43,558 nt of DNA from assembly GCA_038065115.1 (NCBI GenBank), contig JBBTRS010000034.1:1-43558 (forward strand), read 5' to 3'. The stretch's first letter is position 1; every line of letters begins with the position of its first letter. Positions 7,293 to 28,067 of the stretch are shown here, in pieces. This stretch comes from Patescibacteria group bacterium (GTDB lineage Bacteria; Patescibacteriota; Minisyncoccia; UBA6257; MFKM01). Position numbers and translations under genes: made by a program. Below the pieces are notes generated by a model. That model was not told the origin of the DNA, ran no database searches, and worked only from the letters and a program-made list of their open reading frames with translations.

Positions 7293-7332
7293 TTACTATT
7301 GTAATTCCACGATCGCGGAATCATAATAGTAA
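7293..7332. repeat. 40-nt imperfect palindrome centred on CGATCG (copy 1 of 2); probable bidirectional terminator or REP-like element
   Basis: The sequence is TTACTATTGTAATTCCACGATCGCGGAATCATAATAGTAA. It is flanked by an A-run upstream and a T-run downstream. A near-identical element lies at 24281-24324. Confidence 0.75.
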
Positions 7333-7358
7333 ATTTTCTCTGAAAAAAATGAAAAGAT

Positions 7359-11903: not shown

Positions 11904-11923
11904 CCTGCCTGCCGGCAGGCAGG
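11904..11923. repeat. 20-nt perfect palindrome CCTGCCTGCCGGCAGGCAGG inserted in a tRNA T-stem
   Basis: It is identical to 1307-1326. Removing it restores GCGAG/CTCGC T-stem pairing. Confidence 0.8.
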
Positions 11924-12331: not shown

Positions 12332-12378
12332 TAAATTTTTATTTGTTTTGAAATAAGAGTATAATGCTATTATATATG

Positions 12379-12527
12379 CCCAGTAGTGAGCCCGCGATTG
12401 CTTCAGTTTAATTTATCTCGCGGCTTTTAGCTGGACGATAGATCGATTATAACAAATTAAAGTCAAATAAACAAATCAGAACCGCGATAAACTGAAGATA
12501 AATTAATATCGCGGGTCTACTACTGGG
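12379..12527 (+). repeat. TATG-bounded structured repeat, subfamily B, copy B1
   Basis: The sequence runs CCCAGTAGTGAGCCCGCGAT...ATCGCGGGTCTACTACTGGG. It is flanked by TATG at 12375-12378 and 12528-12531. It is homologous to 26011-26157. The right-hand ATG (12529) is the prfB start codon. Confidence 0.85.
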
Positions 12528-12528
12528 T

Positions 12529-13230
12529 ATGATCAATCAAAATACGGCAATTATTTCTGTCTACGCCGGCGTCGGGGGAGAAGACGCCAAAGATTGGGTG
12601 GAAATGCTCTTGAGGATGTATCAAAAATACGCCCAACAAAATAATTGGAAAGTCCGGTCAATCAACAATCATACATCGGAAATAATCGGGGAAAACGCTT
12701 ACGGCCTGCTTAAAAACGAATCCGGAGTTCATCGTTTAATCAGAATTTCTCCGTTTGACGCCAAAAAACTTCGCCATACTTCTTTTGCTTTGGTTGAAGC
12801 TCTGCCGGAACTGCCGGAATTAGAAGAAAAAAAATTGGTTATTCCCGATGAAGATTTAAGAATAGAACTTTGCCGTTCCAGCGGTCCGGGCGGTCAAAAT
12901 GTCAATAAAAGAGAAACCGCGGTCAGGATTATTCATTTGCCGACCGGTTTAACCGCCGCTTCGCAGGCTGAACGCTCCCAAGCTCAAAACCGAGAATTAG
13001 CGTTAAAATTGCTAAAATCAAAACTTTTTAAATTAATGACTGAACGCCAGGAAAAAGAACTAAGCAATCTTCGGACTAAAATAACCCCCGATTGGGGCCA
13101 TCAAATACGCTCCTATGTGCTTCATCCTTATCAAATGGTCAAAGACCACCGCACCGGAGTTAAAACCAGCAATACTGAAGCGGTTTTAGAGGGAAATCTT
13201 GATAAATTCATCAAAAAATCTATAATATAA
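12529..13230 (+). CDS. prfB: peptide chain release factor 2, short form lacking N-terminal domain 1
   Basis: 233 aa. It has the SPF stop-recognition tripeptide (RISPFD) and the GGQ motif (SSGPGGQNVNK). It begins at the equivalent of the domain 2 start (IISVYAGVGGEDAKDW). Confidence 0.85.
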   Translation: MINQNTAIISVYAGVGGEDAKDWVEMLLRMYQKYAQQNNWKVRSINNHTSEIIGENAYGLLKNESGVHRLIRISPFDAKKLRHTSFALVEALPELPELEEKKLVIPDEDLRIELCRSSGPGGQNVNKRETAVRIIHLPTGLTAASQAERSQAQNRELALKLLKSKLFKLMTERQEKELSNLRTKITPDWGHQIRSYVLHPYQMVKDHRTGVKTSNTEAVLEGNLDKFIKKSII

Positions 13231-20360: not shown

Positions 20361-20624
20361 ATGACAAAACTCAACAAAAATGCGGTAGGTTTAGCGCTGG
20401 GAACATTTGTGGCGTTGGCTCATTTAGGCTGGCTTATTCTTATCGGTATCGGATTAGCTAAGCCCCTATATGACTTAATACTCAAACTCCACCACATTTC
20501 GCTATCTTACACCATATTGCCTTTGTCCCTGGGATTAGCCATCGGCCTTCTGGTTATGACTTTTATTGTCGGTTATATATTCGGCTGGGTCTTCGCCACT
20601 CTCTGGAACAAATTTGGAAAATAG
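20361..20624 (+). CDS. small integral membrane protein, function unknown
   Basis: 87 aa with three predicted hydrophobic helices. A terminator follows. Confidence 0.55.
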   Translation: MTKLNKNAVGLALGTFVALAHLGWLILIGIGLAKPLYDLILKLHHISLSYTILPLSLGLAIGLLVMTFIVGYIFGWVFATLWNKFGK

Positions 20625-24280: not shown

Positions 24281-24324
24281 ATTTACTATTGTAAATCCAC
24301 GATCGTGGAATTACAATAGTAAAT
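24281..24324. repeat. 44-nt near-perfect palindrome centred on CGATCG (copy 2 of 2)
   Basis: ATTTACTATTGTAAATCCACGA pairs with TCGTGGAATTACAATAGTAAAT as 22 bp with one mismatch. It is homologous to 7293-7332. Confidence 0.8.
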
Positions 24325-26003: not shown

Positions 26004-26010
26004 TCTTATG

Positions 26011-26157
26011 CCCAGTAGTGAGCCCGCGATTGCTTTAGCTCAATTTATCGCGGGGCTTTCAACTGGGAAATAAATCCATTATTATTAACAAGTCAAATTA
26101 ATAAATCAGAGTCGCGATGAGCTAAAGATAAATTGCTATCGCGGGTCTACTACTGGG
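26011..26157 (+). repeat. TATG-bounded structured repeat, subfamily B, copy B2
   Basis: The termini are the same as in B1. It is flanked by TATG at 26007-26010 and 26158-26161. It starts 8 nt after the stop codon of the protease gene. Confidence 0.85.
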
Positions 26158-26161
26158 TATG

Positions 26162-26291
26162 CCCAGTAGTGAAAACTCGATTTGATTCGCCTTTGGCGAA
26201 TCAGGGTTTTCTAAAACTAAGCAAAAACAAAAAACAATGATTATCAAAAGGTCGTATTATTTCAAATAATTATCGAGTTTCTACTACTGGG
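26162..26291 (+). repeat. TATG-bounded structured repeat, subfamily A, copy A2 (tandem with B2)
   Basis: It shares the middle TATG (26158-26161) with B2. The right TATG is at 26292-26295, and its ATG (26293) is the rplI start codon. Confidence 0.85.
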
Positions 26292-26292
26292 T

Positions 26293-26733
26293 ATGAAAAT
26301 AATCTTATTAAACGATATTAAGGGGTTAGGTAAAAAATTTGAGGTTAAAGAAGTTAAGGATGGATACGCTAAAAATTTTTTAATGCCTCGCAATTTGGCC
26401 AAAATGGCAAATAAAACCAATCTTGGGATTTTGGCTCAACAAAAAGCCGTCTGGGAACGCCAAGAAAAAGAAATTATTGATGGTCTTGAAAAAAATGCCG
26501 AACAGCTTAAGGAAGTTGTTTTGGATTTCCCTCTTAAATCGGGAGAGAACGGGCAAGTTTTTGGCTCGGTTAGCGCTTTGGAAATTAAAAAAGCCCTTGA
26601 AAATTTAGGCTATAAAGACTTTGAAGTGTTTTTAGAAAAACCCATAAAGGAATTGGGAGAGTGCTTGGTGGAAATTGATCTGGGAAAGGGACTTAAATCA
26701 AAAGTCAAAATTAGAGCACATTCACAATCTTAA
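26293..26733 (+). CDS. rplI: 50S ribosomal protein L9
   Basis: 146 aa. MKIILLNDIKGLGKKFEVKEVKDGYAKNFL is the canonical L9 N-terminus. Confidence 0.93.
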   Translation: MKIILLNDIKGLGKKFEVKEVKDGYAKNFLMPRNLAKMANKTNLGILAQQKAVWERQEKEIIDGLEKNAEQLKEVVLDFPLKSGENGQVFGSVSALEIKKALENLGYKDFEVFLEKPIKELGECLVEIDLGKGLKSKVKIRAHSQS

Positions 26734-27902: not shown

Positions 27903-27934
27903 CCCCGTAGTAAAACTTTTACTACGGGGTTTTT
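27903..27934 (+). terminator. strong intrinsic terminator
   Basis: CCCCGTAGTAAAA (27903-27915) pairs with TTTTACTACGGGG (27917-27929), followed by TTTTT. Confidence 0.8.
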
Positions 27935-28067
27935 ATTAAAAAGGCTTTGCGGAAAAGTTTTTACTACGGGGCTTGCGGGCCTTTTTATTTTTAAATCAGT
28001 TTATAGCCATACAACAAATCAAGCTTGTCCGGGAAAATATCCCGCAGGCTATGTTATAATTAATCCA

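Follow-up and report, generated by a model that had tools for sequence, protein, structure and literature searches.

Miniature inverted-repeat elements with interleaved, covarying stems in Patescibacteria, and GIY-YIG nuclease cassettes with the same ends

Elements in the window

We analyzed a stretch of 43,558 nucleotides from a Patescibacteria group bacterium (candidate phyla radiation, CPR; contig JBBTRS010000034.1 of assembly GCA_038065115.1), which is referred to below as the window and to which all element coordinates refer unless a collected locus (L number) is given. Two short elements in it, B1 (12379-12527, 149 bp) and B2 (26011-26157, 147 bp), are non-autonomous copies, or miniature inverted-repeat transposable elements (MITEs), within a mobile-element family of these bacteria. 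Each contains two pairs of complementary blocks, X/X' and Y/Y', which change in concert between copies and cross each other along the strand.

Both elements have TATG on either side and are non-coding, as the left ATG opens an open reading frame (ORF) of merely 11 or 21 codons. They are bounded by 20-bp terminal inverted repeats, T and T', which carry a conserved two-base asymmetry (GA vs AG). Every block string listed for B1 and B2 in an earlier note on this DNA was found in its place. The window carries four copies with identical outer ends: A1, B1, B2 and A2. The last two adjoin each other and have one TATG in common. For A1, B1 and A2, the ATG of the right-hand TATG is the start codon of a gene, which encodes an S30AE/HPF-family protein, a release factor and ribosomal protein L9, respectively. 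The features are as follows.

12375-12378, + strand: left target-site duplication TATG of B1, direct repeat of 12528-12531
12379-12398, + strand: left terminal inverted repeat T of B1 (CCCAGTAGTGAGCCCGCGAT), partner 12508-12527
12401-12409, + strand: block X of B1, CTTCAGTTT, reverse complement of 12489-12497
12409-12417, + strand: block Y of B1, TAATTTATC, reverse complement of 12497-12505; nucleotide 12409 is common to X
12415-12423, + strand: ATCTCGCGG of B1, 3' arm of the 5' local hairpin, seen only in the B1/B2-like sub-lineage
12482-12488, + strand: CCGCGAT of B1, internal direct copy of the inner end of T; pairing with 12508-12514 possible
12489-12497, + strand: block X' of B1, AAACTGAAG, partner of X
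12497-12505, + strand: block Y' of B1, GATAAATTA, a 10-nt bulge on the 3' side once X:X' is paired
12508-12527, + strand: right terminal inverted repeat T' of B1 (ATCGCGGGTCTACTACTGGG), partner of T
12528-12531, + strand: right target-site duplication TATG of B1; the release-factor gene 12529-13230 begins with the ATG at 12529
26007-26161, + strand: B2 including both TATG duplications (T 26011-26030, T' 26138-26157)
26033-26041 and 26119-26127, + strand: blocks X CTTTAGCTC and X' GAGCTAAAG of B2
26041-26049 and 26127-26135, + strand: blocks Y CAATTTATC and Y' GATAAATTG of B2
26158-26295, + strand: A2 with its TATGs (element at 26162-26291), other subfamily, identical outer termini; the ATG at 26293 starts the gene of ribosomal protein L9
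1294-1453, + strand: A1 with both TATGs (element 1298-1449); the ATG at 1451 starts the S30AE/HPF-family gene

A mobile family with duplicated targets

The family was collected by a genome scan, with one genome per species, for the two outer ends, of which the outer 11 nt were fixed by the pattern. At least 115 genome loci match both ends. The host lineages among the matches listed are Saccharibacteria and Jorgensen-, Zambryski-, Moran-, Buchanan-, Taylor-, Wolfe-, Azam-, Doudna- and Curtissbacteria. For 120 oriented copies, the same 4-mer stands on either side of the element, and its sequence varies among copies (TATG in 38, CATA in 14, TCAA in 5, CAGG in 3, and CACA, CACG, TGGA and CCTA in one each). 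These 4-mers are 4-bp target-site duplications, most often TATG. A long ORF starts inside the right duplication in 59 of the 120 copies (sense orientation), and in 16 copies an ORF runs from the left duplication on the opposite strand (antisense orientation).

The outer 11 nt recur in nuclease cassettes that were found by protein search and are described below; they vary there only at element positions 3-4, where the partner base has changed too. Further in, the remaining 9 nt of the repeat vary from subfamily to subfamily yet stay complementary. Short non-coding sequences, terminal inverted repeats, varied target duplications, a large number of copies and a longer coding element with the same ends are the marks by which MITEs are recognized, and this family has all of them.

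The viral collection contained no copies. For a conventional transposase partner, we searched 811 kb of loci for pairs of termini spaced 400-4000 bp and found none apart from the pair in L112, which, rather than being one long element, consists of one MITE end and a nuclease cassette. Ends that appeared to be unpaired belong either to diverged copies or to a 72-nt mini copy (L060:4087-4158). The latter has the same outer ends and TATG duplications, and apart from its terminal repeats and a single GC-rich local hairpin there is little in it. At L214, a 155-nt difference in length that had been considered as an empty site turned out to be a masking artefact.

Paired changes in the two blocks

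Across 149 columns, 25 substitutions and 2 indels separate B1 from B2. Three of the substitutions lie in the 5' blocks (12404, 12407 and 12409) and four in the 3' blocks (12489, 12491, 12494 and 12505), and every one of them restores Watson-Crick pairing. The numbers are unequal because of nucleotide 12409 (26041 in B2), which X and Y share as their end and their start, respectively: both of its alternative partners are altered. The earlier note had counted three compensated positions in X. The pairing is indeed kept, although the actual tally is four compensated pairs that stem from three 5' changes. The covariation that it had reported in the extension of the adjacent Y block (T..A in B1, C..G in B2) is confirmed, the change at 12409/12505 being compensated. 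At a divergence of about 0.17 per site, the probability of four exact complementing changes by chance is estimated at about 1e-5 or less.

A scan of metagenomes for the B-type right end, which was therefore fixed by the search pattern, resulted in 70 loci and about 60 further subfamily-B copies. We aligned 42 distinct B copies from other genomes and metagenomes and counted pairs in the structure T:T' + X:X' + Y:Y'. X:X' is paired in 96.9% of cells, with 7 of its 9 pairs changed on both sides, and Y:Y' in 96.0% of cells, with 5 of 9 pairs changed on both sides; as the copies are related by descent, these cell counts overstate the number of independent events. One X:X' column pair, for example, reads CG in 26 copies, UA in 8, AU in 4 and GC in 1. 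When the partners were slid by 1-3 columns, the pairing of the whole structure dropped from 95.1% to 28-44%, and none of 500 shuffles reached the observed pairing. The refuting outcome that the earlier note had named, further copies in which the X/X' and Y/Y' blocks mutate independently, is thus not what the 42 B copies show.

The interleaved arrangement extends beyond subfamily B. Among 119 genome copies not selected for it, 13 have an interleaved two-block layout that is significant against shuffles (p <= 0.01), where about one would be expected, and only 5 have a nested two-block layout. The 13 copies have 9 different inner-repeat sequences and unrelated X and Y, with the same block lengths and positions; the blocks CGTTTTCC/TAACGCCC in L001 are an example from outside subfamily B.

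A comparison of haplotypes points in the same direction. Of 15 X or Y haplotypes that recur in at least two copies, 14 are perfectly paired, compared with 7 of 32 singletons; part of this contrast is inherent in the definition, since any copy with a private one-sided change counts as a singleton. The substitutions fixed in multiplying lineages are the compensated ones. These results support the conclusion that the complementarity of both block pairs is actively maintained across the family and, with it, the view of the earlier note that B1 and B2 are not decaying insertions.

The alternative that fares best is neutral concerted evolution, in which intrastrand template switching or hairpin-directed repair (quasi-palindrome correction) would keep the blocks complementary without any role of the pairing in mobility or for the host. 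This possibility had already been raised in the earlier note, and the strictly Watson-Crick, strand-symmetric complementarity is what a DNA-templated process predicts. Rearrangement between the arms does occur. Within a single MITE subfamily, interiors occur in both orientations with respect to the distinguishable termini, as reverse complements of each other (L004 and L087 vs L022, L043, L050 and L090; CCCAGTAGTGA vs CCCAGTAGTAGA). The flipped interiors keep their orientation relative to the neighboring gene, and each copy has one terminus of each type. However, uncorrected mismatches are frequent in singletons and very rare in shared haplotypes, which is the opposite of what ongoing templated repair predicts for resident copies. 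Furthermore, the block lengths and positions recur with unrelated sequences in the 9 inner-repeat types, and maintenance does not extend to other internal repeats such as the 5' local hairpin. Hence, we consider templated repair an unlikely explanation of the pairing.

A central CTGG(G) motif is also conserved in subfamily B (alignment columns 56-62, window ~12430-12436). In some copies it amounts to an almost complete repetition of the right end within the element (ATCACTACTGGG in L145, ATCGCGGGGCTTTCAACTGGG in B2). To judge from this resemblance, subfamily B may have arisen by head-to-tail joining of two hairpin units.

A property of the DNA or of an RNA leader

Shine-Dalgarno motifs are largely absent in the window, and upstream of most ORF starts TATAAT-like boxes are found 5-12 nt before the ATG (for example at 20361, 28068, 34808, 41444 and, on the minus strand, 24639). 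This suggests that the organism uses leaderless or near-leaderless mRNAs, which may be the reason why TATG at a start codon is tolerated and is a frequent target. With host genes of this kind, copies at start codons are probably transcribed as leaders, and a reading at the RNA level is tempting. The element would then form the 5' end of the downstream gene's transcript, where the helices would serve as a processing site, as a switch between two conformers or as a compact fold that gives ribosomes access to the regenerated AUG. A1, B1 and A2 in the window, and 59 of the 120 copies overall, lie directly on a start codon in the appropriate orientation. The RNA folds predicted for B1 and B2 are of high stability, at -59 and -61 kcal/mol, and their z-scores relative to shuffled sequences are -8.1 and -6.9.

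Selection on a plus-strand RNA would be expected to let G·U through more readily than A·C, and the transition mismatches do not show this. On the plus strand, X has 3 G·T and 6 A·C mismatches and Y has 7 and 11; the inner terminal repeat has 13 and 15 in 119 copies. G·U is thus not in excess on the strand that would be transcribed. Nor is the pairing any worse at a distance from start codons, as X and Y are 94.2% Watson-Crick in B copies at start codons vs 96.9% in the 13 copies elsewhere. The fold buries the start codon, and the short ORF from the left ATG ends differently in B1 and B2. In a search of the whole window against Rfam, only tRNAs passed the gathering threshold (the best weak match was a plant miRNA hairpin with 20 bits vs a cutoff of 144), and no family was found around B1 at E <= 10. 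Since there is no G·U excess and the pairing is independent of context, the complementarity is a property of the element DNA and not of a particular mRNA leader. The functional RNA put forward in the earlier note, as one option besides a single-stranded DNA structure, consequently finds no support, and we regard a leader function as the basis of the pairing as distinctly improbable. A more general caution is that compensatory change alone is insufficient to identify a functional RNA.

Alternative extensions of the terminal stem

The earlier note described the block pairings as non-nested. It is true that Y:Y' crosses X:X' and that the order X-Y...X'-Y' does not fit one simple hairpin, but X:X' by itself is nested in the terminal helix. 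In the minimum-free-energy folds of B1 and B2, the terminal stem continues straight into X:X', which leaves Y' as a 10-nt bulge on the 3' side. No helix other than the terminal stem and X:X' is retained in the consensus fold. When either T+X or T+Y is enforced, the two structures are about 2 kcal/mol apart on average, with T+X being better in 32 of the 42 copies with DNA parameters and in 29 with RNA parameters. Because this difference is small, X:X' and Y:Y' are best seen as alternatives of similar stability and not as simultaneous partners.

Simultaneous formation of X:X' and Y:Y' as a classical pseudoknot was considered and rejected, as linkers of 0-3 nt are too short to span 9-bp helices stacked end to end; this rejection covers end-to-end stacking, not a side-by-side arrangement. 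Given the order of the blocks and the length of the linkers, both helices cannot stack on the stem at once. A helix further inward, in which the GCGAT before X' would pair with the stretch that follows Y, is not kept in the consensus fold. The GCGAT itself is widely kept and could pair with T', the partner that was fixed by the search.

Of the two structures proposed in the earlier note, alternative conformers thus fit better than kissing loops. The latter would link two local hairpins that have CCGCGAT/ATCGCGG stems, be it in RNA or in single-stranded DNA. B1 and B2 do allow both hairpins to be drawn, with the complementary blocks in their loops. However, the 5' hairpin of B1 is in fact CCGCGAT/ATCTCGCGG with a 2-nt bulge, and it is not conserved in the family: its outer pairs are gapped in 26-35 of the 42 sequences, so that it is absent from most B copies, and where the letters are present they are unpaired more often than paired. 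The 3' local hairpin is 85.7% paired, with a 3' arm that was fixed by the search pattern and so was unable to covary. The second loop reads X'Y' instead of the antiparallel Y'X' required for a continuous kissing helix, which leaves two separate helices. In addition, the local stems would have to compete with the much stronger 20-bp terminal stem, and neither of them appears in the consensus fold. A kissing-loop structure is therefore very unlikely.

The proposition that X and Y are subterminal binding sites, alike at both ends because one protein binds both, is barely credible: read inward, each end does have T, X and Y in the same orientation, but X and Y are unrelated between subfamilies while the outer 11 nt are fixed, and a protein site would keep its sequence instead of drifting via paired changes.

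GIY-YIG nuclease cassettes with the same ends

Four loci contain cassettes of about 318 bp with the same termini, target and duplication as the MITEs, in which the sole gene encodes a 104-residue GIY-YIG nuclease. On the basis of these common sequence features, such a cassette is the likely parent of B1/B2-type elements. Cassettes of this general kind, including those with other terminal repeats described below, are located as follows.

L112:5059-5381: cassette
L186:1497-1825: cassette
L196:1200-1525: cassette
L206:1200-1522: cassette
L216:575-895: cassette
L013, L048, L065, L076 and L084: cassettes at further loci

In the L112 cassette, a 104-codon ORF (L112:5062-5376) lies within CCTAGTAGTGAGCTTTCT...AGAAAGTCTACTACTAGG, with TATG on both sides. 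In four independent loci, the GIY-YIG ORF is enclosed by TATG and CCTAGTAGTGAGCTTTCTG on the left and by CAGAAAGTCTACTAC(T)AGG or TGGG, followed by TATG, on the right. Overall, the cassettes are about 300-320 bp long, have inverted repeats, encode only a GIY-YIG nuclease of 90-106 residues and are situated on or beside gene starts. The neighborhoods of the four cassettes with the MITE ends are unrelated (after ruvB, before a HAD hydrolase gene, after dnaA and, in L112, before a gene of unknown function), and each of these four is flanked by TATG. A MITE with the same inner repeat as the L112 cassette is located in the same 8-kb locus.

The cassette ORF begins at the duplicated ATG. Its stop codon is either a TAG within the right repeat, positioned 2 nt ahead of the regenerated ATG, or a TGA overlapping this ATG. 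A stop codon that abuts or overlaps the next ATG is the classic arrangement for translational coupling.

The L112 cassette protein is recognized as GIY-YIG by Pfam (E 2.4e-16) and has 614 homologs at E <= 0.001. Most of the 25 homologs that we looked at have 104 residues, start with MPSSELS and end with QKVYY, which are the translated left and right repeats. In the AlphaFold model (pLDDT 81.5), these two tails are exactly the disordered parts. The best sequence and fold matches are UPF0213 and Slx1 on branched DNA (1zg2, 6seh, 7cq2-4 and 4xm5). Foldseek gives a probability of 1.00 to both UPF0213 and Slx1, with E-values of only 0.001-0.03, and UvrC is far weaker. I-TevI is not among the listed fold matches, and the NCBIfam model of group I intron endonucleases scores far below its cutoff.

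A local tblastn search of the collected loci gave cassettes with other terminal repeats (CCCCGTAGTGA..., TCCCGTAGTAGA..., ACCCCCACAC..., CCCCGCACC... and ATCCCGTTAGAGAT). There are at least five unrelated terminal-repeat types among the cassettes, which indicates a kind of element that is broader than the family of B1 and B2. In the literature, of which the full-text coverage was partial so that an earlier description is possible, we could find no description of such cassettes and nothing on CPR MITEs, GIY-YIG elements with inverted repeats or mobile UPF0213/COG2827.

One hairpin in the window resembles these other repeats. At 27903-27935, a terminator-like hairpin, CCCCGTAGTAA-aactt-TTACTACGGGG, is followed by a T run, and its arms are nearly identical to the outer repeat of the L013 cassette. 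A third copy of the arm is found at 27961-27971, 30 nt beyond the hairpin. This is possibly a minimal relic of a related element that now acts as a terminator.

A possible mechanism

The account that we favor, with belief and doubt about equally balanced, is that the interleaved alternative stems of these MITEs are kept Watson-Crick because the elements are mobilized as folded DNA by the cassette nuclease. The 104-residue Slx1/UPF0213-like protein would act in trans, reading the invariant outer 11 nt together with the shape of the folded DNA, which could be a single-strand stem-loop or a cruciform. Copies that lose the pairing would stop multiplying. Either X:X' or Y:Y' would extend the terminal stem, and a member of the other pair would loop out.

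The interleaving itself could then be explained by the symmetry of the two strands. A stem that is bulged on one side differs between the two strands of DNA, so that a plain bulged palindrome is not strand-symmetric. In the elements studied here, the top strand would form the stem, a 3' bulge (Y') and X:X', and the bottom strand would form the stem, a 3' bulge (X') and Y:Y'. Both strands would therefore present the same architecture, as a symmetric enzyme that acts on both of them would need.

Several points weigh against this account. An empty site for B1 or B2 was not recovered, as the insertion is present in all contigs that carry the same L9 or release-factor protein. The interleaved layout is found in only about a tenth of the copies from the unbiased scan, and subfamily A has local hairpins beside the repeats instead. 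The X and Y blocks are absent from the cassettes, which have only a repeat of about 19 bp, meaning that folding beyond the stem is not needed for the cassettes. There is no nuclease cassette within the window, and no cassette with B-type inner repeats was found in the collected loci. The link between the nuclease and mobility consists of shared sequence features, and GIY-YIG enzymes hydrolyze DNA, none of them being known to catalyze strand transfer. The argument from strand symmetry is geometric reasoning and not evidence, and the contrast between singletons and shared haplotypes is, as described above, in part a matter of definition.

With less confidence, and below an even chance, we put forward a broader proposal. 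The interleaved covarying stems may define the DNA shape recognized in an undescribed minimal class of transposons, the sole protein of which would be a 104-residue Slx1-like GIY-YIG nuclease. Such an element would insert exactly on start codons, borrow the initiation signals of the host gene for its own ORF and hand them back via its stop codon, which would lie right next to the regenerated ATG or overlap it. Recognition based on structure would let the non-coding derivatives take on any sequence, provided that both strands fold alike.

Should the cassettes indeed mobilize these elements, they would lie far below all autonomous DNA transposons known to us in size. They would also employ a nuclease fold that is not known to drive transposition, which raises the question of how the cut DNA is rejoined with a 4-bp duplication. 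The non-coding copies amount to a natural mutational scan with about 100 sequenced variants, which shows what must pair and what may vary. Recognition of structure is thereby directly testable, as it is for integron attC sites. For annotation, these findings mean that many CPR genes are preceded by hairpins of 120-150 bp or by a selfish 104-residue "GIY-YIG nuclease family protein". In these cases, the second ATG is the start codon of the host gene, and the displaced promoter probably now drives a structured leader.

Comparison with known systems

In size and appearance, the elements are similar to bacterial MITEs such as the Correia elements of Neisseria, which are about 150 bp long and non-coding, with terminal inverted repeats of 20-26 bp and a short target duplication. 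Like them, the elements occur in many intergenic copies near gene starts and would form a long hairpin if transcribed. They differ from Correia elements in the 4-bp duplication that favors TATG exactly on the start codon, in the interior with two interleaved covarying repeat pairs and in the candidate parent, which encodes a GIY-YIG nuclease and not a DDE transposase.

Repetitive palindromes of the REPIN/RAYT type and those derived from IS200/IS605 are also short hairpin elements thought to be recognized as folded single-stranded DNA by a small nuclease acting in trans, and they have a GTAG motif near the end, as do the elements described here. However, they lack terminal repeats that pair end to end as well as target duplications, and their transposases are HUH tyrosine enzymes. 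In the present family, duplications are present and the partner found is GIY-YIG (HUH genes were not searched for genome-wide). The attC sites of integrons share the conservation of structure over sequence, the paired changes that keep a folded stem and bulges that are part of the recognized shape. They are sites of a tyrosine recombinase that uses one strand, whereas here both strands have the same layout and the target is duplicated.

Slx1 and UPF0213 are the closest relatives of the cassette protein in sequence and fold, and Slx1 cuts branched DNA. Unlike Slx1, the cassette protein, a predicted nuclease, has only 104 residues and neither a zinc-finger domain nor an Slx4 partner. Unlike in both, its gene lies inside terminal repeats that supply the first and last codons. 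With the homing endonuclease genes of the GIY-YIG type (I-TevI and the Seg proteins), the cassettes share the organization of a selfish gene that encodes only a GIY-YIG nuclease. Homing, however, copies such a gene into one cognate site via flanking homology, whereas the cassettes are found at unrelated loci, with inverted-repeat ends and 4-bp duplications, and non-coding derivatives multiply alongside them.

Other palindromes and the release-factor gene

A1 holds a nested 20-nt GC-rich palindrome, CCTGCCTGCCGGCAGGCAGG, at 1307-1326. It is a precise insertion that A2 does not have. The same palindrome is found again at 11904-11923, beside a tRNA-like T-arm sequence, and within the B copy L176 from another metagenome, with variants in L008 and L074. 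ARAGORN predicted no tRNA around the palindrome at 11904, whether the palindrome was kept or removed. It looks like a second, much smaller mobile palindrome. Further small GC-rich palindromes are present within the B copies of L128 and L184.

The release-factor homolog downstream of B1 (12529-13230) has 233 residues. It matches the PCRF profile only from position 99 onward and lacks the usual N-terminal domain. No upstream coding remnant of this gene is visible before the B1 MITE.

Finally, two intergenic copies of a 42-nt near-perfect palindrome (TTACTATTGTAA.TCCACGATCG.GGAAT.ACAATAGTAA), which are 90% identical, are located at 7293-7334 and 24281-24324. These copies either act as bidirectional terminators shared by the genes around them or belong to a further family of small repeats.

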